64,000 bases of DNA, taken from NCBI GenBank assembly GCA_034723395.1, contig JAYEOW010000029.1, forward strand, positions 86,828 through 150,827, given 5' to 3'. A program made the position numbers and the translations under genes. Positions 1,945-63,869 of the stretch are shown here, piece by piece. Source of the DNA: Candidatus Margulisiibacteriota bacterium (GTDB taxonomy: Bacteria; Margulisbacteria; WOR-1; O2-12-FULL-45-9). The notes under the pieces are model-generated. The model was not told where the DNA came from, did no database searches, and worked only from the letters and a program-made list of their open reading frames with translations. Positions within the stretch are counted from its first letter, which is position 1. Every line of letters starts with the position of its first letter.

Positions 1945-1972
1945 TGAAATTTTTTCCTGAACTTTCCGAAAG
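1945..1972 (+). promoter_or_regulatory. Sigma-28-like promoter motif, copy 1
   Basis: TGAAATTT-tttcctgaacttt-CCGAAAG, just upstream of ATG 1982. Confidence 0.65.
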
Positions 1973-1981
1973 TTATTTGCC

Positions 1982-4900
1982 ATGTCACGTATAACAAAAA
2001 ACAATGGTGGAAGAGCTGTGTTTCCTCGGGCAATAGCTCTTCATGCTAGAAGAGGATTGTTTAACGATCCAACTGCGCGAAAATTCCTCAAGCCGATCTT
2101 AAAATTTTGGAAAACGGGCAGAATGGAGCCTTCCTCAAAAGATCTGTTGGCGGTTGAGCGGGAGGCAATTCTTACGGTTGGAGTTGAAGCGGATTTGAGG
2201 AATCTGGCAACCTGCCGCCGAAAAGCCTTAGAAGGATTAGGGTCGAAAAACAGAGAAGAGTATATTAACTTATTAATTTCCCTTGGCGCGTGTTACAGGA
2301 AAGAGGGGGAACTTGAGGATGCACAACGTCTGCTCCAGGGAATCAGCTTAGTAGAGCCGGGGAATTGGTTGGTAAAAGCAGAGTTGGGAATTGTTTGTGG
2401 ATTGCGAGGAAAGTTAGAATTATCTGTCCGATATTTTAAAGAAGCAGACTCGGTCCTGGAAGCATATGATCGGGAATATGAGGTGGAGGTGGCGGAAAGA
2501 TGGGAGGCAGCCTCTTTTCGAGCGCGTTTTGAGGCCTTACTTGCGATAGAAAATGATAAAGGAATTAGCCAAGCGCGACTCTCCGACATCCTTGCTCCGG
2601 TTTTAACTTTTCCCGAGGGATTGGAACTTAACGGTATCAAACAATTTTTTTACCAAAAGTTTGAGCGTGCATTTATCGCTTTGCTGCAAAGCAAAGCTCC
2701 GTTCGACCTGTTTTTTAACCTGTTTTATCGAGGAATAAAAGGAGAAAAAGATGGGGTGGCCGCAATGGCCTCGGGAGAGTGGCCGGTCGATGGGAATAGG
2801 CTGCTAAAAGAGAGCCAGATGGTTGTGCTTAAGGTGTTGACAAAAAGCGAGAGGGAGATTGATGCGGTCCAGTTGAAGGATTTATTCGGCGCCGAAAAAG
2901 ATAGCAAATCGGCGATAACGGTTTATGTTCGGATGAGAGTGCGCGCACTATTAGGAAAGGGGCGGCTAGATGCCGCTTGTGTGCTTTGGCAGGAAGTCAA
3001 AAACAATAAATTGGTTTCTCCCGCCGTGTTGAAGGCCCTCCGTTCCGAATTGAGGGCTGGGGAAAAGAAGCTGCGGCAGGATGCGGTGATGGACCAGGCT
3101 TCGGAATTTCTGCGCCAATTGGAGTTTTTTCAGAAAGCCGGGAATGAAGAGAAACTGCTTAATGAGCATGGGAAGCTGGCGGACCAAGCTGCTAGATTGT
3201 TGGAGGTTGCCGAGGAAGAGACAAAGGATGCGGTAAGAGAAGCGTTGATCGAGTTTGTCGAGTTTAACCTCCGGACGGCAAAGACTTTGCAGGGAGCGGT
3301 CCTATTGGCAGACCGCCTGATCGAATTTGGAGATGAAATTGCGCAAGGAGTTAAAAAGATTTTTAATGAAAAGCTTAGCCATGATGGATCAAGAAAGCTT
3401 TTCATGGCGGGCCTGGCTAGCGCGAAGGTACAGGTGATCTCGCTTGGGACTATGCTGGCAAAGGGCAATATCCCGGTAGACGTTACATTTAAAGCTGTGA
3501 AAATTTCTAAGAAGAAGAGCCTAAAAATTCCCAATAACGCGGAGTTTAACAAAGTAAAAAGGTTCTTTGATTTCTTTTTTGTCCGTTTTAGAGAGCATCC
3601 CAGGATGCGGACAATGGCGGGAAAGATCGATGTCCCTTTTGCCGAGCCGATTAGCATGGAATCTTTCTGGTTTTGTTTTATGGCCGCTTTTGACAGCAAC
3701 ATCCATGACCGGACCCATACCTTTGAACTGGCGTTAAGGCTGGACCCAAATAATGTTGTTGCCAAAATGGAGATAGCGCGCCAATATCTTGCCCTTAAAC
3801 AGGCCGTCCGCGCTGAGAGGCAGATCGATGAGGTGTTGGAAAAACTTGATCACCCTGCCGGTGTTTTTAAGGCGCTTACCATTAAGATAATGGCGGTTTG
3901 CCAGAAGCTGGCTGCGGCTAATGTCCGGGGTGAGAGATTGGTTGGGATGGTTGGGGAAAATGAAAAGCTTTTTCAAAGAGCGGAAAGGGAATACGAAAAA
4001 ATTGCTCCGGAGTTGCGCAGCTCGCCGCTGATTGCGGATGAACTGCGGGGGCTCAACCAGACCCTTGGACAGATATATACGATGGCGCGTGATTTTGGTA
4101 AGGCAGTGGCCTATTACGACAAGACCTTGGAGAGCCGTCCGGGCGGCAAGGTCTATGAGTTGGCGATGCGGGCCAAAACCCATTCGCTTTTACTTGAAGG
4201 GAAATTTCCGCGGGCGGTCGACTTCTTGTCCCGTCAGATCGCGGAGCTGGCCAAGGACGTGAACCGCCCGATCCCGGCATCTTTGTATTTTTATTTCGCG
4301 GAGGCGATGTTCCATGTAAAATCGCACAAACACGCGCTGACCGCGATCAACCGCGCGCTCGGGATTAAAAAGAGGCTCGACCTCATACTTGCGAAGGTCC
4401 GTATATTGGCGGCGGCAGGGAAAGTTAGACAGGCGGAGATGATGCTTGATCTTTATGCCGGCCAGGATGCTCAAGAAACCGGCAAAAAGGGGGAAGAAGG
4501 TTCCAAATTTCTTAGGGGACTGCGTGCTTTAGCGGACGCGGAGATCTATCTGGCCAAGGATCGTCCGCAAGCGGCCATTAAAGCGTTTGAACTGGCGATC
4601 AAACTTTTTTCCGGTAATTACAATACGGAGTTTAGGGAGATAGAGTCGAGGTACTATCTGGTTAATCTTATTTCGCGGATGGCTGTGGAGGCCGGGAACC
4701 AAGGACTTGTCCGCCGCGCGGTCGAAGAGGGAGAGAAGCTTTTGCGAAAATATCCTTTTTTTCCGCCGGCCCGTCAAGTTATGGTTGGTCCGCTGATGAT
4801 CTTCGGTAAAGAGTCGGAGGCGTTGGGGCACATCCAATGGCTGGTAAAGCAATCTGGCCGGGGGGTATCGAGCGATATCCTGGCAAACTTGATCATCAGC

Positions 4901-5101
4901 GTATTTTCGGAGAACGAGGCAATACAAGAAAAGGCGATTGCGCTCTTTGTCCAGGTAAGGAAGGATACGGCGGATGAGGCGTTCCCGGGAATTTACAAAG
5001 CGGCTAAACAGGCGGTCAGATTAATTGCAGCGGACTGGAGCGAAATGCATGACCGGCGGCTGGACGATGTCCTGGCGGCGGATACTGCACCCAGGCAATA
5101 A
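1982..5101 (+). CDS. Large orphan TPR/alpha-solenoid protein (1039 aa)
   Basis: Long ORF with TPR-like helices (LISLGACYRKEGELEDA, ALRLDPNNVVAKMEIA, LGQIYTMARDFGKAVAYYDKTL); no signal peptide. Confidence 0.75.
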   Translation: MSRITKNNGGRAVFPRAIALHARRGLFNDPTARKFLKPILKFWKTGRMEPSSKDLLAVEREAILTVGVEADLRNLATCRRKALEGLGSKNREEYINLLISLGACYRKEGELEDAQRLLQGISLVEPGNWLVKAELGIVCGLRGKLELSVRYFKEADSVLEAYDREYEVEVAERWEAASFRARFEALLAIENDKGISQARLSDILAPVLTFPEGLELNGIKQFFYQKFERAFIALLQSKAPFDLFFNLFYRGIKGEKDGVAAMASGEWPVDGNRLLKESQMVVLKVLTKSEREIDAVQLKDLFGAEKDSKSAITVYVRMRVRALLGKGRLDAACVLWQEVKNNKLVSPAVLKALRSELRAGEKKLRQDAVMDQASEFLRQLEFFQKAGNEEKLLNEHGKLADQAARLLEVAEEETKDAVREALIEFVEFNLRTAKTLQGAVLLADRLIEFGDEIAQGVKKIFNEKLSHDGSRKLFMAGLASAKVQVISLGTMLAKGNIPVDVTFKAVKISKKKSLKIPNNAEFNKVKRFFDFFFVRFREHPRMRTMAGKIDVPFAEPISMESFWFCFMAAFDSNIHDRTHTFELALRLDPNNVVAKMEIARQYLALKQAVRAERQIDEVLEKLDHPAGVFKALTIKIMAVCQKLAAANVRGERLVGMVGENEKLFQRAEREYEKIAPELRSSPLIADELRGLNQTLGQIYTMARDFGKAVAYYDKTLESRPGGKVYELAMRAKTHSLLLEGKFPRAVDFLSRQIAELAKDVNRPIPASLYFYFAEAMFHVKSHKHALTAINRALGIKKRLDLILAKVRILAAAGKVRQAEMMLDLYAGQDAQETGKKGEEGSKFLRGLRALADAEIYLAKDRPQAAIKAFELAIKLFSGNYNTEFREIESRYYLVNLISRMAVEAGNQGLVRRAVEEGEKLLRKYPFFPPARQVMVGPLMIFGKESEALGHIQWLVKQSGRGVSSDILANLIISVFSENEAIQEKAIALFVQVRKDTADEAFPGIYKAAKQAVRLIAADWSEMHDRRLDDVLAADTAPRQ

Positions 5102-5143: not shown

Positions 5144-5171
5144 TGAAATTTCCTGTGAATCAGCCCGATAA
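5144..5171 (+). promoter_or_regulatory. Sigma-28-like promoter motif, copy 2
   Basis: TGAAATTT-cctgtgaatcagc-CCGATAA, then a GGAGG SD and ATG 5193. Confidence 0.75.
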
Positions 5172-5192: not shown

Positions 5193-5600
5193 ATGAGTGT
5201 AGTTAATTTAGCTATAACCGCTACGACTATTCATAGGGCGTTAGCTAAAAGAAAAATGTCTTATCCCTATTCGTGCCTTTTGAACCATCGTCTTTCGCCG
5301 ACGATAAGGGCGCTGAAAAAATTGGCCAATATAGATCCGGTAAGATATACTGCCTATCAGGAGATGATTGATTTTCTGGTCAATATCGCGAAAAGCCAAA
5401 AAGTCAAGGTAAAGCTTACCTTGCATATTCCAGGCCTTGCCGCGTTACGGGTAATTGATGTGGAGAGATTGATGGAAGATTCGGATGCCCGCAGGGATAT
5501 TGTTAAACGTTGCTACCTCCCGACCAAAGGGATAATCGATCTCAGACCGCTGATTTTTATCAATAAATTATACACTCCAGGGATCAAGGCCGCGCTTTAA
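5193..5600 (+). CDS. Hypothetical protein (135 aa)
   Basis: ORF with GGAGG SD and upstream motif; no recognisable domain. Confidence 0.65.
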   Translation: MSVVNLAITATTIHRALAKRKMSYPYSCLLNHRLSPTIRALKKLANIDPVRYTAYQEMIDFLVNIAKSQKVKVKLTLHIPGLAALRVIDVERLMEDSDARRDIVKRCYLPTKGIIDLRPLIFINKLYTPGIKAAL

Positions 5601-5619: not shown

Positions 5620-5647
5620 TGAAATTTTTGTTGTAACCCCACGATGA
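5620..5647 (+). promoter_or_regulatory. Sigma-28-like promoter motif, copy 3
   Basis: TGAAATTT-ttgttgtaacccc-ACGATGA, upstream of ATG 5655. Confidence 0.65.
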
Positions 5648-5654
5648 ATGTTAT

Positions 5655-7517
5655 ATGGCTATTTACCAGCGTCCAGTATCAAGTGTTAAATTAGATCTTG
5701 GCCTGTTAGGGGTTAAAGGAAGGCTAATTACGCGGCATCGGCTTGCCCGCATGGAGAAGGGGGCTTATCGAGGGGTAATTGATTTAGTCAACCGTTTATC
5801 CGGCCAAACCGTTGTCGATCGATTAAAACTGGACCCTCCAGGCAAGCTTTCTGCTGGGACTTTAAAAGATATTCCGTTAGCTTTAGTTGCGGAAAAATTT
5901 GTAAGTGGAAGCAATGTCCAAACATTAGATCTGCGCGGGATCGAAAAGTTCTGGGCTAGAGAAGGGGCAGAGAGAGCAAAAAAACAATATCTCGGGGTTA
6001 CTGCGGAACGGATAGAAGGGTTGTTTCCTGATCCGAAGACTTTACAGGTTGGCCACCTCTTGGATGTCCTTCTTGAAGAAAGACAGTATTTTGACCGCCT
6101 CGCTCGCGATCCGCAAGCAACGGTTGATAAAGTATTTAAAGCAATCGATCATGGAAAGGAGAAATTAGGATTCTTGAATGTTACTGTTTATCGCCCGATA
6201 GAGGATGGCAAGTGGGTGAGAACACAGCGGACCCGGCAATGGAGATCTTCTCAAACCTTAAAATATGATCCGGTAAAGGGAGGGGGTTTTCCGGAGACCA
6301 CGCTAAAAAGTGTGATTGAAGGTGATAAATTGATCTATGACGTGATGATCAATGATCCAAAAACGTTTAGGCGTGAGGGGTTGGTGCCCGATTTTAGTTC
6401 GATCCGTAATGATCTAAAACAATCCAAGGGATCGGACCGGATGCTTTTTGTAAAATTGGTTTCAAGTTCGGGAGAGGTCGAAGGGGTGGTGCAGCTTCAT
6501 AATCGGGTAAGTGTTGATGAGCCGATCGATTCGTTGCCTTTGCTGCCAAAAGAACCGCAAGACGCCCGCCGCATCAAAACAGAATTGCTACTTTATTTTG
6601 ATCAAGCGGTGCAGGCGATCGAAGCGATCAGGAATCGTGAAAGGTTAAGGGCTGCCGCTGTCTTCCCGGGCCAAGAGAGAAAAGATCCGACCGGAGAAGT
6701 TTATAGCCCGCTCCAATTTCACCGCTCAAGTGGTGACCCGGAACCGTATCTTGATCTAAAGATCGAGATCAACCGGAGCCCATCGCTAAATTTTGAAAAG
6801 ATCGAAGCCCGTGTAGTTGAACAGCTGACCGCGTTGGCCGAAGCTTGCGGCATTCTCCATATGAGTCCTGCGGAGATGCGGGAGCACGTCATACGGGTAA
6901 GCCGGGCAGAGATCGTGAGGAAAAAAGAGGAGATCGTCGGTTTTGGAACTTCACGGTATTTTGATAATTATGTTAACCATAAGGGGAAAAAAGAGACCTT
7001 AACCCTGCTTTGGGGGACGATGGTAAGGCCCGATATGCGCAGAAGGGGATTAATGATTAAGCTAAACTTTGATCTGATCAAGGCGGCCAAAGAGGCGGTC
7101 CAACTTGCGATAACCGGTTTGTTCAAGAGTATAAGGCGGCTTTTTGTCCCGGCCCCGATCACGGTAAGGACTCAAAGTGTTGCCGTCCTTAATGCTTGTT
7201 CCCGGCATTTTAGCGGAGTAGCAAGAGTGGGGCAAACACCAAAAGATAGATATGGCCATATGACCAAGTTTGTTGCCGAACGGGAGAGCTGGGTGATCGA
7301 TGGGAAGAATATCCAGCGAAATGCTTACGATCGGATGAGAGTTGATAGCAAAGGGGACCTGATCCCGGGATTGGGCCCTAATGATGCTTACGTCTTTTCG
7401 GGGGATTTTACCGCGTGGAAAGAATTTTTAACCTGGGTGGCGATTAAAATTATCTATCCAGCCAAATCTTGGTGGAAAAGGAAAGGTGGAAAAAAGAAGA
7501 TCAGTTCTATTATTTAA
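5655..7517 (+). CDS. Orphan protein with possible GAF-like middle region and C-terminal GNAT-like domain (620 aa)
   Basis: LVSSSGEVEGVVQLHNR resembles a GAF strand; GTMVRPDMRRRGLM resembles GNAT motif A. Confidence 0.55.
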   Translation: MAIYQRPVSSVKLDLGLLGVKGRLITRHRLARMEKGAYRGVIDLVNRLSGQTVVDRLKLDPPGKLSAGTLKDIPLALVAEKFVSGSNVQTLDLRGIEKFWAREGAERAKKQYLGVTAERIEGLFPDPKTLQVGHLLDVLLEERQYFDRLARDPQATVDKVFKAIDHGKEKLGFLNVTVYRPIEDGKWVRTQRTRQWRSSQTLKYDPVKGGGFPETTLKSVIEGDKLIYDVMINDPKTFRREGLVPDFSSIRNDLKQSKGSDRMLFVKLVSSSGEVEGVVQLHNRVSVDEPIDSLPLLPKEPQDARRIKTELLLYFDQAVQAIEAIRNRERLRAAAVFPGQERKDPTGEVYSPLQFHRSSGDPEPYLDLKIEINRSPSLNFEKIEARVVEQLTALAEACGILHMSPAEMREHVIRVSRAEIVRKKEEIVGFGTSRYFDNYVNHKGKKETLTLLWGTMVRPDMRRRGLMIKLNFDLIKAAKEAVQLAITGLFKSIRRLFVPAPITVRTQSVAVLNACSRHFSGVARVGQTPKDRYGHMTKFVAERESWVIDGKNIQRNAYDRMRVDSKGDLIPGLGPNDAYVFSGDFTAWKEFLTWVAIKIIYPAKSWWKRKGGKKKISSII

Positions 7518-7519
7518 CT

Positions 7520-8224
7520 ATGAAAATCAGCGGGCAAAAAATATTCTGGGGTACCTATTGGAAGATCTACCGGTCTTTGGCTGCAGTACGGCCCTATAAA
7601 AAAACGGTAGATCGGGGGATAAACCTGCTTGAGGTCAAAGATGGGGGACGTTATCTTGATCTTGCTTGCGGACCGGGGATTACCAGCCGGAAGCTGAAAG
7701 ACGCGGGCAGGAACTTGAGCGTGCTTGGCATAGATTCTTCTAAGTCGGGCCTGGCAATAGCGCGCGCGGATAATCCCGATATCCATTTTGCGGTGGCTGA
7801 TTTTAATATGCCTTTACCGATAAAATCCCGATCGATGGATGGCGTTTTTGCCAATAATGCTTTTTACCTGGTAAAAGACCCAGTAACAACGTTAGGCCGT
7901 ATTCGCGATATTTTAAGGCCGGGCGGGATGTTTGTAATGTCAACGCCAAAAGAGGGGGCCAGGCCTTTTGCGATCGTCAGGGAGCATTTAAAAGGGAGCA
8001 GGGGGATCTTCGAGCCCTTCAGGGTATTTGCCATGTTCTTAGCGTTCCTCCCGTTCCAGATCGCGCTCAAAGGCAGTGCGGGCGGAGCGGCAAATTTCTG
8101 GTCGCAAGAGAAATGGGAGGCAGTTTTAGAGGATGCCCGATTGAAGGGGATTGAATTTGAAGTTGTAGCGGCTGAACCATCGTACGCGGACCAGAATACA
8201 ACCTTTGCCTTGCGTCGCACATAA
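7520..8224 (+). CDS. Class I SAM-dependent methyltransferase
   Basis: YLDLACGPG (motif I), GIDSS, VADF, ILRPGGMF; ATG 7520 is 2 nt after the upstream stop. Confidence 0.85.
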   Translation: MKISGQKIFWGTYWKIYRSLAAVRPYKKTVDRGINLLEVKDGGRYLDLACGPGITSRKLKDAGRNLSVLGIDSSKSGLAIARADNPDIHFAVADFNMPLPIKSRSMDGVFANNAFYLVKDPVTTLGRIRDILRPGGMFVMSTPKEGARPFAIVREHLKGSRGIFEPFRVFAMFLAFLPFQIALKGSAGGAANFWSQEKWEAVLEDARLKGIEFEVVAAEPSYADQNTTFALRRT

Positions 8225-32120: not shown

Positions 32121-32141
32121 AATTTTATCGCCTTCCTTTTA

Positions 32142-36075: not shown

Positions 36076-36079
36076 TCCT

Positions 36080-38470: not shown

Positions 38471-38486
38471 TTCTATTTCCTCCCTT

Positions 38487-41495: not shown

Positions 41496-41498
41496 CGA

Positions 41499-42583: not shown

Positions 42584-42611
42584 TTATCGATACCTTTTGG
42601 CAATAATTTCA
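42584..42611 (-). promoter_or_regulatory. Sigma-28-like promoter motif, copy 7
   Basis: TGAAATTA-ttgccaaaaggta-TCGATAA. Confidence 0.72.
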
Positions 42612-47128: not shown

Positions 47129-47188
47129 TCTAATTATTCCTCCCAATCTATATTGTTCTTGCCCTAAAGGCACACTATCTCTATGTAT

Positions 47189-47216
47189 TTATCGGTAAGT
47201 TATCCATATAATTTCA
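47189..47216 (-). promoter_or_regulatory. Sigma-28-like promoter motif, copy 8
   Basis: TGAAATTA-tatggataactta-CCGATAA. Confidence 0.72.
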
Positions 47217-50107: not shown

Positions 50108-50135
50108 TTATCGACACTTTTCGGGTAAAATTTCA
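50108..50135 (-). promoter_or_regulatory. Sigma-28-like promoter motif, copy 9
   Basis: TGAAATTT-tacccgaaaagtg-TCGATAA. Confidence 0.75.
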
Positions 50136-50143: not shown

Positions 50144-53100
50144 TTAAAAGCGGAGCAGCCAATTGAAACCGAGTCCCCAGCTCCAATACTTGAAGGTAGT
50201 AGTGTTCTGGTGAGATACGTTGCCGGTAAGCTGGATCCTGCCGTATTTTCCCATGTTATACTCAAGCCCAAGCCCCCACTGCCACGGGCCGGTGCCAATG
50301 GTGCGATGGGTGGTTATCCCTTGTGCCGGGTTATATTCCCGCTCATAAATTGGAATATTTACAAAGGCGCGTATTTTTAGCAAATTATGGCTGATTCTCG
50401 GCTTGAGGAGTTCGGCTAAGTCGAGTTCGTAATTTAAGCCGAGGGCCAAGGAGCGCCGATTGCGGGTCTCTTCGTTCCCGGTGTTGTTTAAGAAGACAAA
50501 ATTATATAAATTCAGAATGAGCCCAACTTTGATCTGGGCAAACGGATTCTTGGTCGCCCCAATATTACCCATAATACTTAGATAGTGGGTGTCAAGCAGC
50601 TTGTTTTCGATGTTCTTGTTCCAGGAATACGCGGCGGTAAAATATTTGCCCCAGTAGCTGAGGGATAGGCCGATATCGGGCCTTCTGAAATAGAGCGGTT
50701 TAACCGCGGCAGCGTTTTCTGATCCTCCTGATCTCAATGGTAGATACTTGGGAATCAAAGCCTTCCATTTAAAATCGAGGGTAACCCGTTTTTTAAGAAA
50801 ATCGGGTTTAAGTTTTAAGCCAAGATAGGTGTTGTTGACGGTCGAGCGGCCCCGGATGTCGGTGCGGTGGTCGGTAAAGTTTTGGGCATACAGGGTTAAT
50901 TGGTCCCGCCAAACCGGAAGTCTTAACGTAATTCCAAGGCGGGTTTCGATAGCGCTCACGTCGTTAAACATTTCAAAACCGGTCGTGATATGCGGTTCAT
51001 AAACATCCTGCTTCATTCTTAAAAGCGGCCCTTTTAATTCTTCCGGCGGGACCAGGATCCGCTTGTAAAGTTTCAGCGCTTTGGAGAGCCGGACCCAGGC
51101 CAAACTATTGTTCCCTTCCTGCTGCTCGAGTTTGGCTAACCCAAAATTGAGTTTGGTCATTAAAACATCACGGTCTTCGTTAAGCACCGGAAGTTTTAAC
51201 GCCCATCCCTCCGCCTTTTCGTAATTTGTTTTGGAAAGCTGATAATCTCTCTTTCCTTTAGCGAAGCGGTAGAGTTCGCCTAAGCCGAAGAAGGTGGAGG
51301 TCATGGCGATCTTGGCATCTTTTGAATATTCGGTTAACCCTTCAAGGGTGGTTCGAGCCTGGTTGTACCATTTTTCGGAGAGATCGTATTTTTCGGTCTT
51401 CCATGCTTTGCCTTTGCTTGGTTGGAACTTAGGATTTTTCCAGTCGGCCAAGTAGATATCTCCACGGCTGACGTAAACCTGCCCTTGAAAGATCTTCTTT
51501 AGATCTCCATAAGGAAGAGTGTCGGGGATATTCTTGGTGGCTTTAAGAATTCTAGTTAATTCCCTTAGTGACAACCGATAGAATTTTGTACTTTGTGCTG
51601 CTTTTCCTTTACGCCCTAATTTCCCGGCAAGCCAGCTGTAAGCGTTAGCGATCTTTAACCAGAGTTTGTATTTGAATTTTAAGAAGCTGATCGGCCGCCC
51701 TTTTAAGGTAAACAGTTTTTTTATCTTCCCCAGGTGGTATTTTTGATACTTGAGGCCAAGCTCGACCATCTTTTTAAACCTCTTTTCGTAAGATAATCCT
51801 TCCATTTGGTCGAGGATCAGCCGGGTATAAAGGTTGGGATCGAGATCTTCTTGGCGAGCCTGGAAGATCGCTCTTTGTAATGAGAGTTTCATTACCGAAC
51901 CCGAAGTGCGGGTTTTTCTCATGGTTAGTTCGGCCTTAACTAAAAGATATGCAGGATAAAGCTCGCTGTCTTTCTTAATTACTTGATCAAGCAGGGCTTT
52001 GGGGATCCCGTCCCCATTTGATACTTTTGACGCTTCAGCAAACTTTTTCCTCCAGATCAGCGTTTCGGCCAGCTTGAGATAGAGGATTGCCCTAAATCGG
52101 GGATAAACATTAGCGACGTCCTTTATCTTGGTAAGGGAATCCTTTAACGCCTTTGGCAGCGATCCGTTTTCAACTTTCTGCCCAAGGAGATATTTGGTGA
52201 TAAAGATGATCTTATCGTGCCAATCTTCGTTGGTGCCGTAGGCTTCGATCAGGGCGCTGATCGCACGGGTAATAAGGAAGGATCCCACGGCCTGGTTGTT
52301 AAGCACGTCGGGGACGGCAAGCTCTAGAGCGGCAACATTTTTGTTCGAATAGTTTTCGCCCTTGCGCATCTTAGCTTCGGCGATCCCCAGTTTAATGCGT
52401 GCTTTGAGATCAGGGTGGGGGAAGGACTTTCTGATCGCCGCTAAAAGCGCGTTATATTTATCGATCGCTAATTGATGGTGTCCCTGCTGACTATAAATAT
52501 CGGCGCGAATTGCGCGGGCGCCATAATTTTGCGGGAAGATGTTGATCGCCTTATTAATTTCGACCAGGGCTTTGGACAGTTTTTTCTGTAATAAGTAGAT
52601 CTCGCCCTGGGTTTGCAGCGCGTACGAAAGTTGAGGGCCCCTTAAGATATCCGGGCCGAGAGCTTTGGAGATATGTTTTTGGGCAATAACCAGGATTCTT
52701 CTTCTTGCTTGGGTGGTATCTGAATTGCCGGCTTCGATGTATAAGATCTTTGCCAGCCAGAGGTTGATATCGGCCCTGGTCTGCGGGCTGGCGTTTTTAA
52801 GCGCTTTTATAAGATAAGCTTTGGCGCTGGTTAAGAATTTAGCAGAAGCGGTCCTACTACCAAGATTTAGGGTGATAAATGCCTGCTGGGCAAGGGCTTC
52901 AGAAAGGGCGGTAAGCACATCCGATAAGATATCGGGATCGATCCCGATTTTTGCTACGATCCGCAGCATCCTTTCGATGATTTTGATCTTTTGTTTTTGG
53001 ATCTTGAGGTATTGGTTGGGGTGTCCCTTTCTCTGTTCCTGAAGGTTCACCAGTTCCAATTTGGCCAGCCAGATCCTGGTATACGCATTGATCTGCTTAA

Positions 53101-55264: not shown

Positions 55265-58200
55265 TGCCGTCTCCTATATTGTTGTAATCGCAGCTCTCGC
55301 TGTTGTACGCTAAGTTTTAACATAGGGACATCGGTGTCTTCTCCGATATTGGTGCTTTCCAAGATAAAGGCGGCCCGATGTTCCACGTCGTAGAGCGAAG
55401 AGGATCGGGCGGCGGCCATGTAGGCGCTTTGGGCGTACTGGTACATCCGGTGCGGTTTCCGGAGGATCCCGTAGATGGTGGTCAAAGTATGATAAATCTC
55501 TGCCTGCAGGGTATTCATATCCCAGGCATTGATATCGGCATAGGAGGCGATAAAATTCTTTGAATTAGCATCCAATTTCTTGACCGCCTTGATAAAAACA
55601 GCTAAGGCTGCAAGGCTTTTTGTTTTGTTTCTTCTTCTGACTTGAAGCAGCAGGGCGCGGAATTTGGTCTTTATCTCTTTGTAGCTTGCGGGATGATAGA
55701 CTTTGACATTATTTTTAATAAATACCTTTAAGACGCGAGTAATTCTCCCGATTTTATAAAAGTTTCTCTTTTGCAGATGCTTACGAAATGTTACGTTAAC
55801 ATTGTACATAAGATAAGGAGGAAGCATGGGGGCGGTCCGTTTTTCGATCTTCCTTAGTAGCCAGAGGGCGTATTCGGCCAATTTCATTTTTTTGCCGCTC
55901 TTTTTAAGGATCCGGTTTAGGACTACCGGATGTTTGCGAAGATGCGCAAGCTTATAGTCTTGCTTGATCTGGATAAAAACTGCCGCTTCTTTAAGGGTGG
56001 CGTTAATTTCAAGAGGGATCCCTGATACACTAGGGATCATCGGAGTATTCGTCTCTACCTGTTCGATAAGCTGGATCGTTCGCAGCGGATTGTAATGTCT
56101 TACTCGGGTAAATTTGTATTTCCCGTTCTTATGTCTAGGGGCGATTCCGGTTAATTGCAGGGTTGCCTCTAAATAATCGAATTCGATCTTTATATATTCG
56201 GGAATGATCTTATCTTTTGCCAAGGCTTCGATCCTTGGCCGATGCTTTGCACAGAAAGCGAGCAGTGCTCCGGCATCAACAAGTGGAATTTGTCTATTGC
56301 CTCGTTTGAGGTAGTGAACAAATTCACCGCTGCGGATGGCGATCTCCAGCTCTTTTACGACCGACTGGGCGTAGAGATAGCGGTAATATTTTGGGATGCC
56401 GGTGAAATAGTAGTTCCGGGCGGTCTTGATCAGCTGATTTGCCTCTAATACCGGGATCTCGTTCCTTAATGCGGTAAATCTATCTAGCTCAGGGAAATGA
56501 ACTTTTGCTGCGTCTAACGCAGTTAGCAGCGCAGTTGGTTCCGGGATAACCGGTCGGCCCAACCCAAAATGAAAATAATTGACCCGGTCGGCTAAAAGCA
56601 TTAATAGTTCACCTTGTACAATTTTTGCCTGGTTATAGAAGAAGCGGTTTTTTATATCAGGGAGATCGGCCATCGCGGAAGCTTCCCGAAGTTCGATCAT
56701 CCCGTAAATCGTTTGGGAAAATTGATTAAAAATATCATCGATGCTTTTGTAGATCGGGCGGGCGGCGTAGAAAGCGGCCGATTTTAACAGTGCGATGCCG
56801 CGAAGCTGTTTATAAATTCCAACCAGGGCCAATCTTTTATCATCAACGGTGATATAGCTCTGATCAATATTAAAATCGAGGCCGTCTTCGATATCCTGCG
56901 GATAGATATTGATTGCTAGGTCGTGTTCTGGAAGATCGATACTAAATAAGCTGTTGTCGCTTTGGTTAAGGTCGATGACCTTGTTGTAGAGGTTGGCGGC
57001 CATTTGATAATGTCCCGGATCCTGGGTCAGGTTAGAGAGCCGATTGTATAGATCACCTAATAAAACGATCCCTTTGATGATGGAGTAGTAGTCGGGCTTT
57101 GAAGGATTAATGGTGTCAAATTGTACTGAGCGAAAATCTTTGATTGCCTCAACCGCGAGTTCGATGCCGGTCTCATAAAAATGTTCATCGCGATTTTCGA
57201 TTTGAGCATGCAGTTCAGCCTGGGTAAGCTTTAGGGCGGCCATATTGTAGCCCGAAGGGGCGCGGGACTTGCCGGTCGCCTGGTCGGCCAGGTATTGCTG
57301 GTCGATCCTTTGTTTAAAGATCTTGGCCATTCTTAATGCGCGGGCAAGTTTTAGCTGTTTATCAGGACTGGTGCTCTCGGTGATCTTTTGGACGTAGATC
57401 GAAAAGAGCATGATCGTGTTGTCCCAGTAGGTGCGGAAATCTCTAAGACAGGCATAGAGTTTGAACTTATGGTTTTTGTCGATCTGCTTTATCGCAGCTA
57501 GTTCTGGATACCGTTCCATCAATTTGTCGGTAGATAAAAGATGGATATCGGGATCAAGGACCCGGTTTACCGGCAGGCTGGCAACGGCATAAAGTATTTT
57601 CTCTAATTGGGTCAGAGTGGTCCTGGCTTCAACCTTGGTCCGGTTGAGCAGCGGCCGTCCGTAGGCATCGGTTTTTCCGAGTTCAGGATCGGGCACACCA
57701 AAGACGGGTGGAGGAAGGACACGCGACTTAATAGGAGTAGGAATAGGAGTAGGAGTAGGAGTAGGAGTAGGAGTAGGAGTAGGCGCTGGAGCTTTTGGTA
57801 ATCCAGTTGCCGGCAGACGCTTTGCCGGTATATATCTTACCCAATCGTATTGAGCTCTGAGCTGGCCGGTATATCTAAAATGCCCGAGCCAGCCGTCAAC
57901 ACCGACCCCCGGCCAAAGGTTCATCATAATTTTTCCCGGCTTACTCGGCAAGTTTTGAGGAGAACCGGTTACTTTATGAACGAGTTTTCGGTCTACGTAC
58001 CACTCGATCGAATTCTTTGTCCATTTTATTCCGTAGGTATGAAAGCCTTTTGAGGCGTCGAATCCGAGGTCGATTATTTTTTCATGATTCCCTTTTCCCC
58101 GGGTATAGTAGTTGAGCTGCATTTTGGTAGGATCTTTACCGAAGATCTCGATATCAATCTCATGGTGGCTCCTTTTTCCATATACACCGGTGTAGAAGAA

Positions 58201-58545
58201 AAGGGTAGAGGTGGTCCCAAATCCTTTGGCCGCTTTGAGCCGTGCTTCAAGCAGTCCGTAGCCGTAAGGGCGCAGGGTCCGCAGCTCGCCGGAGACATAA
58301 GGTTTATTAGAACACATAATGGGGCAGCCCTGATTATCAAGCACGAGGGACATGAACCCGTTCCGGTAAACGACCTTATCTGAGCGCCAGCCGTTATTAA
58401 AAGGGTTTCCGTTTGCCCAGCCGTGGGCTTTTTCCCATACGGAGATATCAAAGCTGTCCATATTATCATCTATGGATGAAGGACCAGGCTGTGCTGGAAT
58501 TAGGGTATTAATTGCCTCTGATATTACGGAAAAATTAAGTGACAT
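55261..58545 (-). CDS. GH16 (licheninase-like) domain, PT linker and large helical domain (1094 aa)
   Basis: SGELRT..YGYG, HEIDIEI (ExDxE), FDASKGFHTY, KIMMNLWPG; (PT)n linker; ATGA overlap with the downstream gene. Confidence 0.82.
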   Translation of the reverse strand: MSLNFSVISEAINTLIPAQPGPSSIDDNMDSFDISVWEKAHGWANGNPFNNGWRSDKVVYRNGFMSLVLDNQGCPIMCSNKPYVSGELRTLRPYGYGLLEARLKAAKGFGTTSTLFFYTGVYGKRSHHEIDIEIFGKDPTKMQLNYYTRGKGNHEKIIDLGFDASKGFHTYGIKWTKNSIEWYVDRKLVHKVTGSPQNLPSKPGKIMMNLWPGVGVDGWLGHFRYTGQLRAQYDWVRYIPAKRLPATGLPKAPAPTPTPTPTPTPTPIPTPIKSRVLPPPVFGVPDPELGKTDAYGRPLLNRTKVEARTTLTQLEKILYAVASLPVNRVLDPDIHLLSTDKLMERYPELAAIKQIDKNHKFKLYACLRDFRTYWDNTIMLFSIYVQKITESTSPDKQLKLARALRMAKIFKQRIDQQYLADQATGKSRAPSGYNMAALKLTQAELHAQIENRDEHFYETGIELAVEAIKDFRSVQFDTINPSKPDYYSIIKGIVLLGDLYNRLSNLTQDPGHYQMAANLYNKVIDLNQSDNSLFSIDLPEHDLAINIYPQDIEDGLDFNIDQSYITVDDKRLALVGIYKQLRGIALLKSAAFYAARPIYKSIDDIFNQFSQTIYGMIELREASAMADLPDIKNRFFYNQAKIVQGELLMLLADRVNYFHFGLGRPVIPEPTALLTALDAAKVHFPELDRFTALRNEIPVLEANQLIKTARNYYFTGIPKYYRYLYAQSVVKELEIAIRSGEFVHYLKRGNRQIPLVDAGALLAFCAKHRPRIEALAKDKIIPEYIKIEFDYLEATLQLTGIAPRHKNGKYKFTRVRHYNPLRTIQLIEQVETNTPMIPSVSGIPLEINATLKEAAVFIQIKQDYKLAHLRKHPVVLNRILKKSGKKMKLAEYALWLLRKIEKRTAPMLPPYLMYNVNVTFRKHLQKRNFYKIGRITRVLKVFIKNNVKVYHPASYKEIKTKFRALLLQVRRRNKTKSLAALAVFIKAVKKLDANSKNFIASYADINAWDMNTLQAEIYHTLTTIYGILRKPHRMYQYAQSAYMAAARSSSLYDVEHRAAFILESTNIGEDTDVPMLKLSVQQRELRLQQYRRRQ
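57731..57784 (-). repeat. 6-bp repeat encoding a Pro-Thr linker
   Basis: (GGAGTA)n on the plus strand encodes PTPTPTPTPTPTPIPTPI. Confidence 0.85.
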
Positions 58546-58569: not shown

Positions 58570-58597
58570 ATATCGTCACTTTTTGCCTAAAATTTCA
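58570..58597 (-). promoter_or_regulatory. Sigma-28-like promoter motif, copy 10
   Basis: TGAAATTT-taggcaaaaagtg-ACGATAT, then AGGAGAGG SD and ATG 58545. Confidence 0.75.
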
Positions 58598-58625: not shown

Positions 58626-59420
58626 TTAGGGCGTAATACGCGATCCCTTTACCGGACATTTTGCGGGAGGTTTTCGTAGCCCGCTTGCCGGTGTATATTT
58701 TAACCAATCGTATTGGGCGGTGACAGGTTTTAGGTACTGAAAAGCGCCAAGCCAGGCATTTACTCCGGTTCCCGGCCAGAGATTCATCATGATTTTTGCC
58801 GGTTTGCTGGGAAGGGTTTTTGGCGTCCCCGTAACGCAATGGACCGATTTTCCGTCGACATACCAGATCAGCATCTTCTTTGCCCAGCGCATGCTGTAGG
58901 TGTGGAATCCTTTGGACGAATCAAAACCGAGGTTAATGATCTTTTCGTGTTTTCCTGCCCCGAAAGCGTAGTAATTGAGCTGCATCTTGCGGGGATTTTT
59001 ACCAAAGATTTCAATGTCGATCTCGTGATGGCTCGGTTTTCCCCATTTGCCGGTATAGAAGAAAAGAGTGGTGGTGGTTCCAGAGGCCTTGGCTGATTTA
59101 ATGCGGCTTCGGAGCAGGCCGTATTTATAAGATTTGTTGGATCGAAGCTCACCGGATACATAAGGTTTGCGGGAGCATCTTCCGGGGCAGCCGCGGTTAT
59201 CAAGCCGCAGATGCATTTTGCCATTTCGATAAAAAACCTTGTCGGATCTCCATCCATTATTAAATGGATTTCCATTGGTCCAGCCGTTTGCTTTGTGCCA
59301 GGTCCTGGAGTTGAATCGACTGAAGTTGTCGTCGATATTTCCGGCAGTTTTTCGCGGGCCGGGGGCCGACACAATGGCTCCGGTAATAGTATCTGAAGCT
59401 AGAGAAACTAGGTTCATCAT
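58626..59420 (-). CDS. Stand-alone GH16 beta-glucanase, paralog of the 55261-58545 N-terminal domain
   Basis: HHEIDIEIFG, KIMMNLWPG; NGNPFNNGWRSDKV shared with the neighbour. Confidence 0.88.
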   Translation of the reverse strand: MMNLVSLASDTITGAIVSAPGPRKTAGNIDDNFSRFNSRTWHKANGWTNGNPFNNGWRSDKVFYRNGKMHLRLDNRGCPGRCSRKPYVSGELRSNKSYKYGLLRSRIKSAKASGTTTTLFFYTGKWGKPSHHEIDIEIFGKNPRKMQLNYYAFGAGKHEKIINLGFDSSKGFHTYSMRWAKKMLIWYVDGKSVHCVTGTPKTLPSKPAKIMMNLWPGTGVNAWLGAFQYLKPVTAQYDWLKYTPASGLRKPPAKCPVKGSRITP

Positions 59421-59687: not shown

Positions 59688-59715
59688 GTTTCGGCACCTT
59701 TTCTGGGAAATTTCA
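59688..59715 (-). promoter_or_regulatory. Sigma-28-like promoter motif, copy 11
   Basis: TGAAATTT-cccagaaaaggtg-CCGAAAC. Confidence 0.68.
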
Positions 59716-59829: not shown

Positions 59830-61020
59830 ATGGAAATAAAGAGAGATACTATAAATAGTTTAAATAAAGATATAGATGAGAGTTATGTAACTATTTTAGT
59901 TGGGTCCCGCCAGGTGGGGAAGACCTTCCTGTTGAGAAAAATTGCGGATTTTGCGAAAGCGAGAGGGTTAAAGACAGCTTTCTTTGACCTTGAGCAGCCT
60001 GATGTGTTAAACCGGTTTAATAAAAAAGACGCGGAAATTGTTAAATTTATTATGAGTGCGGGAGATGTGGTATTTCTGGATGAGTTCCATTATTTGAAAA
60101 ATGCTTCCCGTATTTTTAAAGCAATTTATGATAGCGGTAAAAAAATAAAAATATTTGCGTCAGGGTCTTCATCACTGGAGATCCATAAGCATCTTAAAGA
60201 ATCCCTGGCAGGGAGGAAGATGATCTATAGGATATATCCTTGTTCATTTGGAGAAATTTCTCAGGTTATTTCAGGAGATCCTTTGGATTATTATTTTAAA
60301 TATGGGGGGCTTCCCGGTCTCATCCATATCAAAGACGCGGAAAAACGAAAAAAACTTTTACTTGACATACTGCAATCTTATATATTAAAAGATATTAAGT
60401 CGCTTATAAAAGAAGAGAACATAAGGGCTTTTAACAATTTACTTTATTTATTAGCTCAATATCAGGGAGCGGTTGTTACCGTTGCTAGCCTGGCAAATGA
60501 GGTTGGGCTTACTGCCAAGAGCATAGAGGCCTACCTGGAAATATTATCGCAAACTTATATCAATTTTCCTCTGCATAGCTTTAGCCGGAATTATGGGAAT
60601 GAGTTGAAAAAATCAAAAAAATATTATCTGTATGATTTAGGGATCAGAAACGTGTTGCTGAAGAATTTTTCAGCTTTAACAGAAAGAGAAGATAAGGGAA
60701 TTATGGCCGAGAGTTTTGTCTTTTCCGAACTTAATTTCCAATTAACCCCGGAAACGGAGTTGAGGTTCTGGCGATTGAAAGATGGCACTGAAATTGATTT
60801 TATCTGGGTAAAGAATCAGAAACCTTTTCCTATCGAAGTGAAAACTAAATGCGGGAAAGGCGAGATCCCGGGAGGTTTAAAGGGATTTATAAATAGATAC
60901 CCAAAGACTGAAAAAGCCTTTATTCTTAATAAGAATTATAGAGGGAGCACAAGCTATAAGGATACGCCGATTTTTTATAGAAAATGGACAGATGCCACTT
61001 CAATCCCCGCGGAAGTTTAA
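59830..61020 (+). CDS. AAA_14 ATPase with DUF4143 C-terminal domain
   Basis: GSRQVGKT, FLDEFH, SGSSS, ESLAGR, YGGLP, KYYLYDLG, EIDF...IEVK. Confidence 0.9.
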   Translation: MEIKRDTINSLNKDIDESYVTILVGSRQVGKTFLLRKIADFAKARGLKTAFFDLEQPDVLNRFNKKDAEIVKFIMSAGDVVFLDEFHYLKNASRIFKAIYDSGKKIKIFASGSSSLEIHKHLKESLAGRKMIYRIYPCSFGEISQVISGDPLDYYFKYGGLPGLIHIKDAEKRKKLLLDILQSYILKDIKSLIKEENIRAFNNLLYLLAQYQGAVVTVASLANEVGLTAKSIEAYLEILSQTYINFPLHSFSRNYGNELKKSKKYYLYDLGIRNVLLKNFSALTEREDKGIMAESFVFSELNFQLTPETELRFWRLKDGTEIDFIWVKNQKPFPIEVKTKCGKGEIPGGLKGFINRYPKTEKAFILNKNYRGSTSYKDTPIFYRKWTDATSIPAEV

Positions 61021-63812
61021 TTCCTAAAAAATCTCCATCCAGCTGGGGACATGGTGACGGTATTAGCTTCATCAGTTTCGACAACATAGCGAGTGATCAT
61101 CGATTCGGATTCGCCCTCGGGTGAACCTGACATACAAGCAAACCTGGTATTATATCCGACCAGGTTTAACGGCTTTGGTGAATAGATATCAAAAGGCATC
61201 TGGTTGTTTTTTATCGCGGCATAAACTGCCCAGATTGCTAGAGCGCGCATATATTTAGGAGCTCGTCCAGATTCCATACCGTATCTCTTCTTTTTATTGT
61301 TATAACGGAAGTCATCGGGATTAACATAACCTTCAGGAGTCCGTCCGAACCAATGTTGGCTATCGGGGCTGTTACTGTAGACGACATTATAGAAGCCGTG
61401 GACAATTTTCCAGCCATTCTCGACCAGTTGCTGATTATTGGTCTCTTTTCCTAGACGAATCTGATAGGCAGCGTTTAAAAGCATCGCACCGGTCCACCCT
61501 TCGTCGCCCTGTTCGGTTTTGTTCTGAGCTCCATCAAATCCACGAAGGTTTACCAAACCTAATGGACCATGGTTGCCGACGTTGCTCCAAGCCTCTCCAT
61601 TAATACTATATATGGTATTAAGAGCGTAAGCTGCCCGATCATTTGGAACTACTGGATCAAGATCGGTTATTCGTGCATAAAAGTCGCCAAAAAGCATATC
61701 GGAGTGGATATTAGTGTTTGGCTCCGAATTGTCCAGTGCACTAAAAGCATTGTAATAGCCATTATCATTCCAAAGTTTTGCCAAGACTTTTTTCCCAGCA
61801 TCATACCAAGCTATATATTTATCGAGGGTCTTATCGTCCCCTACTAGAGCGGCCATTTTCTGGGCGGCTTCTAGTGCTCCTAACCACTGAGTTACGACGT
61901 TAGGAGTATATCCTTTTCCCGAAATGGTATCGTAGGTCCAATCGGGAATCCCTTTTGATTTTGGAACATGAGTAATTTTATCGGCCCATCTATTTTCTAA
62001 TGTATCCAGCGACATCTTTACCGAAGGATAGATCGTTTTAATAAAATCGATATCACGCTTTCCGGTCTGATCGAAAACAAACATATAATAACGCCAGGTC
62101 CTTAAGGCGAATTTGGGGGCGAGATCGATCCACATATTGGCGTTTGACCAATTAAAACCGTTACAGGTGTTGGTAAATGGGAAGAGTCCGTTGTCTTGGA
62201 AGCCGCCTAGATCGTGACAGACTGTTCCGGCTTCTTTAGCTGGACCCCAATAAAGGTCTTTATAATGACTAGGGACAGTATTGGTCCAGCGATCGGTCCC
62301 CTTCCAGTGGCGGGTGGGATCGTGAAGGGGAACTAGACGACCGAATTCTAAAAGATCGCTCTTTTCTAGTTTTGGAAAGAGCGCCAAGATTGCCCAGGTG
62401 TAGGAATTGACGTCCGAAGTGTTGTACATCTTATAATCAATACTTTCGAGATAAGCAAAGCGTCCCTGATCGGCCTCCCAAATGCCGGTTTCAGGGAGGA
62501 TATAGAGCTCGTTCAGTAGAGCTTGTTTGAAAAAGTTTGGCAGTGCTGGATCGTTAATAATGGTATCTTGAAAGTCGTCGATCTGTCCTTTCCAGCTAGC
62601 AAAATTATTTAGTGCATCCTGTGCGATATCTTTTGCATTTTGTCCAGATGCGCTATAAAAATTTGTATAAAACTTTGGCATGCGGATTGCATGGCTTTTT
62701 GGGTCGGTTACTTTCTTTTGGAATAAATAAAATGGATTGTCATAAGCTACAACTACCGGGTGTTTGATCGTCTCTCCAGGTTGAAGTGTAAGCGTTATAT
62801 TTAAGGTGCCGACATTTCCACTAGTGTTCTCAGAAACAAATGCTTGTCCTGGAATACTATTAGAAACCAGCGCAATTTGCCCAGCCAATCCCATGCCATC
62901 CCTTACTAGCTTTCTTTGGTCTCCTTTTTGTTTGAAAACAATTCCGGTGGTGTTTCCTGTATTAAAACTTTCGCTATAATTATTTTTACTATCCCTTACC
63001 CAGGCGAGTTTAGCATTTGGATTTTTGGGATTGTTCTTCCCGTCTTTTACCCGCCAGCCCAAGATATTTTCGCGGGATACAGTAAAAGTTACATCAATTG
63101 GTTTATTAGTAGGATTATGAGCGATTAATTCGATCATCTCTACCGGCATGCTTGAAGAAATATAATTGCCAGGGATAACTGGGGAGAACTGCATAACCGA
63201 GATAGGGATGTCGAGGTTATAAGATCTTTCAGAATACGGATAGAGGGCATAATAGGTACCTTCGGTGTTAGCAAGATCGTATGAGTTGTTGCCAATACTT
63301 ACCGTGATGTTGTTTGATTCGATCGGATCTTGGATCATGTGTCCAGTTCTAAGGTAAAAGGTTGTATTATCGATTTCATAAAGCGGTGCGCCGAGTCCAC
63401 CTACTGGTAGATAGCTTAATTGATCGTAATCGGACATAGGATAGGGGACCTTCTCGTGGCCAAAGTTTTGAGGAGAGACGATATCGGGCATTGCTCGCTC
63501 GTAAGCGGGGCCGGTGGCTAATCCGCCGAGCGTGGTTTGGCAGAAATTATAGTTTAATCTTCTTAGGGCGTTCCTGATAACGGCGCGGGCAAACGGTTCT
63601 CCGGCTTGCTGATTTTCCTGGGCGTCGGCGGAGGCACGTTGGATCAGGCCTTTTAAACGGCCGTGGATCTCTTCTCCATCGGTATCAATTACTACTCGTT
63701 CTACTAATAGCTCGCTGTAGTTGTCTAATAGATAATGATAAGGATCTGTGCCGATGATCGCACTTGAAAGTTCCTGATTTGACTGGGCGGGGCAGGTTAT
63801 TGGATTTACCAT
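61017..63812 (-). CDS. GH116 (GBA2-like) beta-glucosidase with N-terminal extension
   Basis: PVGGLGA, YALYP, FSPVIPGNY..SSMPV, ALLNELY, FAYLESIDY..YNTSDV, GIPDWTYD, RTPE, YMRALAIW. Confidence 0.85.
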   Translation of the reverse strand: MVNPITCPAQSNQELSSAIIGTDPYHYLLDNYSELLVERVVIDTDGEEIHGRLKGLIQRASADAQENQQAGEPFARAVIRNALRRLNYNFCQTTLGGLATGPAYERAMPDIVSPQNFGHEKVPYPMSDYDQLSYLPVGGLGAPLYEIDNTTFYLRTGHMIQDPIESNNITVSIGNNSYDLANTEGTYYALYPYSERSYNLDIPISVMQFSPVIPGNYISSSMPVEMIELIAHNPTNKPIDVTFTVSRENILGWRVKDGKNNPKNPNAKLAWVRDSKNNYSESFNTGNTTGIVFKQKGDQRKLVRDGMGLAGQIALVSNSIPGQAFVSENTSGNVGTLNITLTLQPGETIKHPVVVAYDNPFYLFQKKVTDPKSHAIRMPKFYTNFYSASGQNAKDIAQDALNNFASWKGQIDDFQDTIINDPALPNFFKQALLNELYILPETGIWEADQGRFAYLESIDYKMYNTSDVNSYTWAILALFPKLEKSDLLEFGRLVPLHDPTRHWKGTDRWTNTVPSHYKDLYWGPAKEAGTVCHDLGGFQDNGLFPFTNTCNGFNWSNANMWIDLAPKFALRTWRYYMFVFDQTGKRDIDFIKTIYPSVKMSLDTLENRWADKITHVPKSKGIPDWTYDTISGKGYTPNVVTQWLGALEAAQKMAALVGDDKTLDKYIAWYDAGKKVLAKLWNDNGYYNAFSALDNSEPNTNIHSDMLFGDFYARITDLDPVVPNDRAAYALNTIYSINGEAWSNVGNHGPLGLVNLRGFDGAQNKTEQGDEGWTGAMLLNAAYQIRLGKETNNQQLVENGWKIVHGFYNVVYSNSPDSQHWFGRTPEGYVNPDDFRYNNKKKRYGMESGRAPKYMRALAIWAVYAAIKNNQMPFDIYSPKPLNLVGYNTRFACMSGSPEGESESMITRYVVETDEANTVTMSPAGWRFFRN

Positions 63813-63841
63813 GATATTTCCTCCTGATATGTTCTATATCA

Positions 63842-63869
63842 TTATCGGTGGTAAAAATAGGAAATTTCA
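63842..63869 (-). promoter_or_regulatory. Sigma-28-like promoter motif, copy 12
   Basis: TGAAATTT-cctatttttacca-CCGATAA, then GGAGG SD and ATG 63812. Confidence 0.78.

Follow-up and report, generated by a model that had tools for sequence, protein, structure and literature searches.

A probable sigma-28-type promoter heading about 100 transcription units in a genome of the class Saganbacteria

The closest precedent for the system described here is the attack-phase regulon of Bdellovibrio bacteriovorus FliA, which combines a sigma-28-type consensus with a broad set of non-flagellar targets. In that species (PMC3627812), the sequence TTAAG-N16-CCGATA marks 92 of the 140 attack-phase promoters that have been mapped. 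FliA, which is proposed to regulate globally there, controls many non-flagellar and uncharacterised genes, regulators and small RNAs. Streptomyces WhiG and Chlamydia sigma-28 are likewise sigma-28-family factors steering non-motility programmes; their regulons are described as developmental or late-gene sets (PMC12871210; PMC12282069), unlike the one considered here. The subject of this work is a bipartite motif, TGAAATT(T/A)-N13-(A/C/T)CGA(A/T), present in 12 copies in a stretch of 64,000 nucleotides (nt), hereafter the window (contig C29, positions 86828-150827), of a genome of the class Saganbacteria (WOR-1, Margulisiibacteriota). This genome, G000, is a 1.68 Mb assembly in 55 contigs (97% complete, 45% G+C), in which genes were called as crude open reading frames (ORFs) without a trained gene finder. 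The motif is probably a sigma-28-type (FliA/SigD/WhiG) promoter that depends on an alternative sigma factor, the likeliest candidate being a FliA/WhiG-like protein encoded on contig C55.

The similarity to described sigma-28 promoters can be followed base by base. The fliC promoter of Pseudomonas aeruginosa (PMC12784957) has (-36)TCTAAAG(-30) and (-15)GCCGATAA(-8), and its A at -11 is flipped out. When the register of the Saganbacterial motif is set by placing the A of CGA at -11, AAA spans positions -33 to -31 and CGATAA spans positions -13 to -8, the same as in fliC. Within this -10 box CGA is fixed by the search pattern, while T and A follow in 47/58 and 52/58 sites. The likeness, including the equal spacing, extends to the class-3 FliA promoters of Escherichia coli, Salmonella and P. 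aeruginosa (PMC12784957; bioRxiv 10.1101/2020.01.02.893370). Compared with those promoters, the extended -10 GC at -15/-14 is weak in Saganbacteria: G is at -15 in only 24/58 sites, and position -14, limited by the pattern to A, C or T, is variable in a relaxed set of sites. The bases at -34 and -30 are also different, the targets are not late flagellar genes, and the C55 factor has Tyr in place of the Arg that reads the GC. Bdellovibrio is flagellated, has flagellar genes in the regulon and has starts mapped by experiment (PMC3627812), whereas in G000 the Saganbacterial motif, at 0-1 mismatches, is absent from the flagellar operons. Saganbacteria further differ in having rpoD as a conserved target, and GAAAT rather than TAAAG in the -35 box.

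The initial annotation of the window had listed 12 copies of the motif, all intergenic, on the coding strand and with invariant spacing. A search with the pattern TGAAATTW-N13-HCGAW recovers exactly these positions (Table 1), against a chance expectation of 0.11 (100 dinucleotide-preserving shuffles, maximum 2). All 12 lie between ORFs, on the same strand as the next ORF, and the gap from CGATA to the start codon is 8-109 nt. The whole genome contains 58 matches to this strict pattern. The spacing is as rigid as claimed: genome-wide, TGAAATT-N(sp+2)-CGAW gives 71 matches at a spacer (sp) of 13 and 1-7 at each of nine other spacers. With the 12 core bases TGAAATT-N15-CGATA there are 52 exact sites and 65 with one mismatch, compared with 0-3 and 8-19 at six control spacings. 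Sites with two mismatches are not in excess over the control spacings, which implies about 100 genuine sites and a sharply defined motif.

The placement of these sites is equally distinctive. Of the 117 core sites, 81 are intergenic, though intergenic DNA makes up 7.7% of the genome, and 74 of these face the following gene, with four that do not and three at contig ends. The motif is therefore strongly oriented and placed upstream of genes, rather than being scattered at random or in antisense. Between CGATA and the first plausible start codon there are 21 nt at the median. An extended consensus can be written as an A-rich stretch, (G/C)TGAAATTT, an A-rich spacer centre, a weak TG, CGATA(A/T) and an AT-rich tail. 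Since the spacers vary between sites, the sites are not copies of one repeat.

The start codon lies 5-12 nt past CGATA, with peaks at 7 and 10, in 30 of the 89 credible sites. These start codons coincide with the position expected for a sigma-28 start and so hint at leaderless mRNAs; about one third of motif-headed genes look leaderless, and the window sites at 1945 and 5620 appear to be of this kind. In the proposed arrangement, TGAAATTT would be the -35 box (-35 to -28) and CGATA(A/T) the -10 box (-13 to -8), separated by a rigid spacer, with transcription predicted to start about 8 nt past the -10 hexamer. We infer initiation at the motif, the start position and the identity of the reading sigma factor from nucleotide and protein sequences.

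Flagellin genes of sister classes provide a further point of comparison. They carry CTAAAGTT-N13-CCGATAA, with the same register and spacing as the Saganbacterial motif, and at 7 of 30 flagellin loci of other classes in the phylum the best match to the 12 core bases is (C/T)TAAAG..-N13-CCGA.AA, again at the same spacing. This match at identical spacing suggests that the Saganbacterial motif is a derived form of the flagellin-type promoter of the phylum. Together with the orientation of the sites, the group-3 sigma factors of the genome and a separate sigma-70 promoter class (both described below), the geometry supports the idea, already put forward in the initial annotation, of a sigma-28-like promoter read by an alternative sigma factor.

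The sigma-type proteins encoded in G000 are RpoD, one extracytoplasmic function (ECF) factor (on contig C53), an RpoH/RpoS-like protein of 222 amino acids (aa) (C31), a 777-aa protein with a C-terminal sigma domain (C33), and two FliA-like proteins (C55 and C46). FliA/WhiG-like factors of group 3 are thus present. The 246-aa C55 factor (C55:4553-5293) aligns end to end with FliA_WhiG, its best-scoring family (positions 2-224 of 224). Its top relatives of solved structure are 6pfv/6pfj (listed as 'RNA polymerase sigma factor'), 1rp3, 6pmi and 9wsf (FliA), ahead of RpoD chains; the best solved relatives are WhiG and FliA. The gene lies inside a flagellar basal-body operon, in the order flgF/G, flgA, flgH, flgI, flgJ-like, sigma, flgB, flgC, fliE, fliF, fliI, fliJ. 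Orthologs with 60-78% identity are found in 45 of 47 other genomes of the class, while the best matches outside the class have 25-38%. Related genomes are not independent samples, and this applies to all the class-wide counts given here. On balance, we favour the C55 factor as the reader of the motif.

Several observations weigh against this assignment, or against a sigma-28-type promoter altogether. Relative to the fliC -35 core TAAAG (-34 to -30), the motif has G instead of T at -34 and T instead of G at -30, so that the -35 box departs from it at two positions. The C55 factor scores 135.3-135.6 bits, under the NCBIfam TIGR02479 cut-off of 189.6. It has Tyr where E. coli R91 or P. aeruginosa R97 reads the extended -10 GC, and lacks equivalents of E. 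coli R94 and R95; the segment containing this Tyr, PVPYR, is invariant in 10 class orthologs. The Tyr fits the weak GC of the motif, yet departs from the family. In G000, neither the flagellar operons nor the two FliA-like sigma genes have a motif at 0-1 mismatches, which leaves the motif unconnected to known sigma-28 targets and to autoregulation. An ortholog of the C55 factor is missing in two genomes of the class, G097 (95% complete, with 132 strict sites) and G027. In each of them the linked flgI and fliF are missing as well, while flhA is retained, and a missing contig or assembly gap is the likely cause. Finally, the motif is patchy ahead of a CofD-like gene: of eight loci in relatives, two have 0-1 mismatches, three have two and three have four, and the leaderless geometry of this gene is found only in G000 and G097.

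The departure of the -35 box was also considered from the protein side. A change of Gln to Arg in the -35 helix (Q228 in P. aeruginosa) might have explained GAAAT in place of TAAAG, and is rejected because sigma factors of flagellated sister classes with CTAAAG promoters also have Arg. A six-frame search of the genome found no Pfam FlgM match. The 100-aa ORF preceding the C55 sigma gene has no family match; by eye it has the look of a FlgJ rod-binding domain and not of an anti-sigma factor.

A different reader of the same promoter type is possible, though unlikely, the main rival being the short, 196-aa FliA-like C46 factor (C46:681-1271). For its region 4 the best-scoring models are those of FliA, residues equivalent to E. 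coli D81 and R84 are retained, and its gene adjoins flhA, the classical position of fliA, in G013 and G027. All five class genomes examined have it, among them the two without a C55 ortholog (G097 and G027), and this again tells against the C55 factor. It has only domains 2 and 4, with no domain 3, and the weak extended -10 of the motif would suit such a protein. On the other hand, the whole protein reaches only 75 bits against FliA_WhiG, split over two pieces, and domain 3 is normally part of sigma-28-type -10 recognition (PMC12784957). A three-mismatch copy of the motif with leaderless geometry lies ahead of the two-gene operon that contains it, but the chance of such a site occurring there by accident is estimated at about 6%. 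The other gene of this locus (C46:681-1746) is a 111-aa ORF without family match, co-oriented and directly upstream of the sigma gene; this ORF may encode a partner or an anti-sigma factor.

ECF promoters such as those of Bacillus subtilis SigW have rigid spacing, a GAAA-containing -35 and a CG-containing -10, and TGAAAT-N16-CGAT superficially resembles the ECF type TGAAAC-N16-CGTA. Since genes for the ECF (C53), RpoH/RpoS-like (C31) and 777-aa (C33) factors exist in the genome, a promoter read by one of these has to be considered, and we regard it as improbable. The hallmarks AAC (-35) and CGT (-10) of ECF promoters are absent, AAT and CGA being invariant; T at -30 and A at -11 never vary, where ECF promoters have C and T. 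Unlike in ECF systems, there is no autoregulated sigma/anti-sigma operon, and the ECF gene (C53:13034) has no site with 0-1 mismatches upstream. ECF regulons are, moreover, usually small. The C31 and C33 genes are themselves motif targets, as expected of regulon members, though they may be autoregulated. The C33 protein (C33:3291-5624) has a long, internally repetitive N-terminal region before its sigma region 3-4 domain; its gene is preceded by a motif with one mismatch, with the ATG 10 nt past it, and has an apparent ortholog in G097.

Very unlikely, in our judgement, is a housekeeping role for the motif as the promoter normally read by RpoD in this lineage, despite its many copies and its presence ahead of rpoD across the class. 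A canonical class is clearly distinct and serves rRNA and many other genes, so that the housekeeping promoter is not the sigma-28-like motif. A perfect TTGACA-N18-TATAAT stands ahead of the 16S rRNA gene, and a perfect TTGACA-N17-TATAAT (C55:137-177) ahead of the flagellar basal-body operon. In the latter the ATG is 9 nt past the box, and sigma-70 promoters, too, thus seem to make use of leaderless starts. Of 639 upstream regions, 145 have sigma-70 boxes with 0-2 mismatches compared with 22 after shuffling, an approximately six-fold excess, and 63 have the sigma-28-like motif. The 351-aa RpoD is above the RpoD_Cterm cut-off (390.7 vs 354). In addition, 83 control genes, including translation, purine and cell-division genes, lack the motif, although they were selected to lack it. 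Least credible of all is that the motif, bipartite and of fixed spacing, serves a DNA-binding regulator as its operator or belongs to a dispersed repeat, since the two boxes are asymmetric, 74/78 testable intergenic sites face a gene, the start-codon distance is short and fixed with a pile-up 5-12 nt downstream, spacers and flanks are not conserved, and hairpin repeats are unassociated with the motif genome-wide.

The motif arrangement is common to the class Saganbacteria. The strict motif is present at 11-196 copies per genome in all 47 other class genomes sampled, where the reversed pattern gives 0-4; the other classes of the phylum, represented by 73 genomes, have 0-67 copies, and mostly under 25. 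The regulon has a conserved core, to which rpoD belongs: of 30 class genomes, 26 have all 12 core bases unchanged upstream of this gene, with diverged spacers and flanks. The remaining four loci comprise two with one mismatch, one with a spacer longer by one base and one with two mismatches.

The initial annotation had described the genes behind the motif as orphans. This holds statistically: 47 of 76 first genes behind sites outside the window have no Pfam match at E<=1e-6, compared with 14 of 83 motif-less unit-first genes on four large contigs (odds ratio 8.0, p = 6e-9), and the motif-headed islands of the window are not conserved in 15 relatives of the same family. The regulon does not, however, consist only of orphans. 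The 29 Pfam-positive targets include rpoD, two sigma-like genes (those of C31 and C33), three histidine-kinase-type proteins, three HD-domain proteins, two RelA/SpoT proteins, a Ser/Thr kinase, a PP2C phosphatase, CheR, an ADP-ribosylglycohydrolase and an RRM protein, as well as a nucleotidyl transferase and paralogs or relatives of PGK, PFK, PGM and PPDK. The control set contains two higher-scoring PFK genes, an aldolase and an enolase, from which the motif-headed PFK looks like an extra copy.

The proteins encoded behind the motif have unusual N-termini. Residues 2-31 are rich in Arg, which is doubled, and poor in acidic residues, a result that depends on the choice of start codons. The mean net charge of the first 30 residues is +4.2 compared with +1.6 in controls, and a charge of at least +5 is found in 55% compared with 11%; the remainder of the proteins is not more basic than controls. 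Examples in the window start at 1982, 47173 and 50088 (the last being the gene 50088-49534). By the start codons called, the PGK, PFK and CofD paralogs have 20-40 extra N-terminal residues ahead of the Pfam domain. There is no sign in composition of a foreign origin of the regulon genes, the G+C content of which is 45.3% compared with 45.1% for the rest of the genome, and this possibility was dropped.

Elsewhere in the genome, four successive genes at C7:5734-15268 each have their own motif, and encode a 740-aa protein, a PGK paralog, a 474-aa protein and a 1405-aa PPDK_N protein. Eight more sites are found at C19:4791-27105. Identical copies of the motif stand at two contig ends (C2:1-207 and C44:1-207) ahead of a multi-copy protein gene starting MAITGARLTF...; this contig-end site had been considered as an rRNA promoter, which was rejected because it heads the repeated protein gene.

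The motif targets of G000 differ from the class-3 late genes expected of FliA, which include flagellin, hook-associated proteins, stator and chemotaxis genes; CheR is the sole related target. Flagellin, searched for with the Flagellin_N model, has no match in G000 and is seen in just 1 of the 47 other class genomes, whereas FlhA is kept in 59 of 61 class genomes. G000 has only four rod/hook-type matches (three over the cut-off and one weak, hook-like) and one 153-aa frame of the MotA_ExbB family, with no FlgK/L-type protein and no full-length MotA. The basal-body, rod, L/P-ring, C-ring and export-gate genes are complete (C55:175-10789 and C46:20422-28236) and conserved across the class.

We hypothesise the following cascade. 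RpoD would transcribe the basal-body operon, including the gene for the sigma-28-like C55 factor, and this factor would in turn act at some 90-100 promoters; the perfect sigma-70 promoter of the operon is the reason for placing RpoD at the start. The downstream promoters would include those of rpoD, two further sigma-like genes, signalling proteins, sugar-metabolism paralogs and mostly lineage-specific proteins. The class keeps the flagellar export apparatus, with Flagellin_N all but absent, and shares the motif arrangement. A bolder extension, which we find doubtful, is that the basal body, lacking a filament and any recognisable stator, and the type-III export gate act as a secretion and checkpoint device. 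Sigma-28 would have been rewired as the master switch of some 100 fast-turnover accessory units, comprising kinases, phosphatases, glycosidases, enzyme paralogs and many orphans, and the Arg-rich N-terminal extensions, poor in acidic residues, would serve as a shared export or targeting signal, in an effector-like programme comparable to the Bdellovibrio attack phase. The initial annotation suggested a host/prey-attack or developmental programme, which may apply here by analogy with Bdellovibrio.

If correct, this would be a case of a flagellar sigma factor outliving the loss of flagellin as a global regulator, even driving rpoD, although the principle of FliA turned global regulator is already known from Bdellovibrio. 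For this uncultured lineage, a sister of Cyanobacteria, the results provide a promoter model that can be put to use, with two clean promoter classes and apparently frequent leaderless starts. They also identify about 100 probably co-regulated units per genome, and so mark which proteins of unknown function would share one programme. No published description of the motif was found in the literature on Saganbacterial promoters and flagella or on Margulisbacterial sigma factors. What is new here is that the motif is in register, base for base, with solved sigma-28 promoters and is linked to the flagellin promoters of sister classes; new as well are the candidate sigma factor inside the basal-body operon, rpoD as a class-wide target, the controlled test of the orphan claim, and the absence of flagellin set against the retention of FlhA across the class.

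The 12 sites of the window and the transcription units assigned to them are listed in Table 1. Pfam bears out the gene content named in the initial annotation (TPR, methyltransferase, kinase/PP2C, GH16, GH26 and GH116), which had also stated that no copy precedes arg, glm, two-component or transporter genes and that the promoter of such genes, where visible, is a TATAAT box. No window site precedes arg, glmM/glmS, two-component or transporter genes, and sigma-70-like boxes lie ahead of HD, histidine kinase, glmM-like, solute-binding protein and AAA genes.

Table 1 Motif sites (putative promoters) and assigned transcription units in the window. On the minus strand the motif starts at the higher coordinate.
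Feature	Coordinates	Strand	Description
Promoter 1	1945..1971	+	TGAAATTT-N13-CCGAAA, one mismatch in CGATA; ATG of TPR gene 10 nt past CGAAA, apparently leaderless type
Unit 1	1982..5101	+	1039-aa TPR protein
Promoter 2	5144..5170	+	exact motif, then GGAGG and ATG at 5193
Unit 2	5193..5600	+	135-aa protein, no Pfam match
Promoter 3	5620..5646	+	TGAAATTT-N13-ACGATG, one mismatch; ATG 8 nt past it, apparently leaderless type
Unit 3	5655..8224	+	620-aa protein without Pfam match and methyltransferase; operon extent judged from gene spacing
Promoter 4	32811..32837	-	exact motif
Unit 4	29853..32780	-	212-aa lipoprotein-like and 755-aa proteins, both without Pfam match
Promoter 5	33815..33841	-	exact motif, proximal to gene 33782-32850
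Promoter 6	33892..33918	-	exact motif, 77 nt upstream of promoter 5, same gene 33782-32850
Unit 5	32850..33782	-	310-aa protein, twin-arginine-like signal and lipobox Cys, no Pfam match
Promoter 7	42585..42611	-	exact motif
Unit 6	34120..42536	-	345-aa protein without Pfam match, then Big_5, TIG/He_PIG and SLH proteins; gene gaps 3-16 nt, putative operon
Promoter 8	47190..47216	-	exact motif
Unit 7	42630..47173	-	Ser/Thr kinase and PP2C phosphatase
Promoter 9	50109..50135	-	exact motif
Unit 8	47932..50088	-	184-aa and 533-aa proteins, both without Pfam match
Promoter 10	58571..58597	-	exact motif
Unit 9	50144..58545	-	1094-aa GH16 and 1706-aa GH26 proteins, genes overlap by 4 nt
Promoter 11	59689..59715	-	TGAAATTT-N13-CCGAAA, one mismatch; 63-aa ORF next, GH16 gene about 270 nt downstream
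Unit 10	58626..59420	-	264-aa GH16 protein; link to promoter 11 the weakest of the twelve
Promoter 12	63843..63869	-	exact motif
Unit 11	61017..63812	-	931-aa GH116 glycosidase

Comparison with the 15 family relatives shows how unevenly the window is conserved. They have 64-78% DNA similarity to the motif-less genes at 1-1970 and 9618-20000, no DNA match to 1982-9600, and almost none to 38487-59420 or to the GH116 gene; the SLH/PorV-like gene that ends unit 6 is conserved in them. The 1039-aa TPR protein has no homolog at E<=1e-30 among 30 other genomes of the order. The three motif-headed units at 1945-8224 make up an island of some 6 kb, flanked by blocks that are syntenic in the family relatives, in the order nucleotidyl transferase ... 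histidine kinase/response regulator ... glmM-arg.

Two families of hairpin repeats are also present. A palindromic repeat of about 105 nt, predicted to form a long hairpin of about -47 to -55 kcal/mol, is found at 29667-29780 and 33940-34045, with about 10-15 copies in the genome. The second family, at 63885-63988, has about 16 copies in the genome and occurs also in relatives. The repeats stand beside the motif sites at 33918 and 63869, and were considered as partners of the motif; this was rejected, as only 1/10 and 2/16 copies respectively are near a site genome-wide. The second repeat is found at contig ends (C19:1-107 is identical), and thus breaks the assembly.

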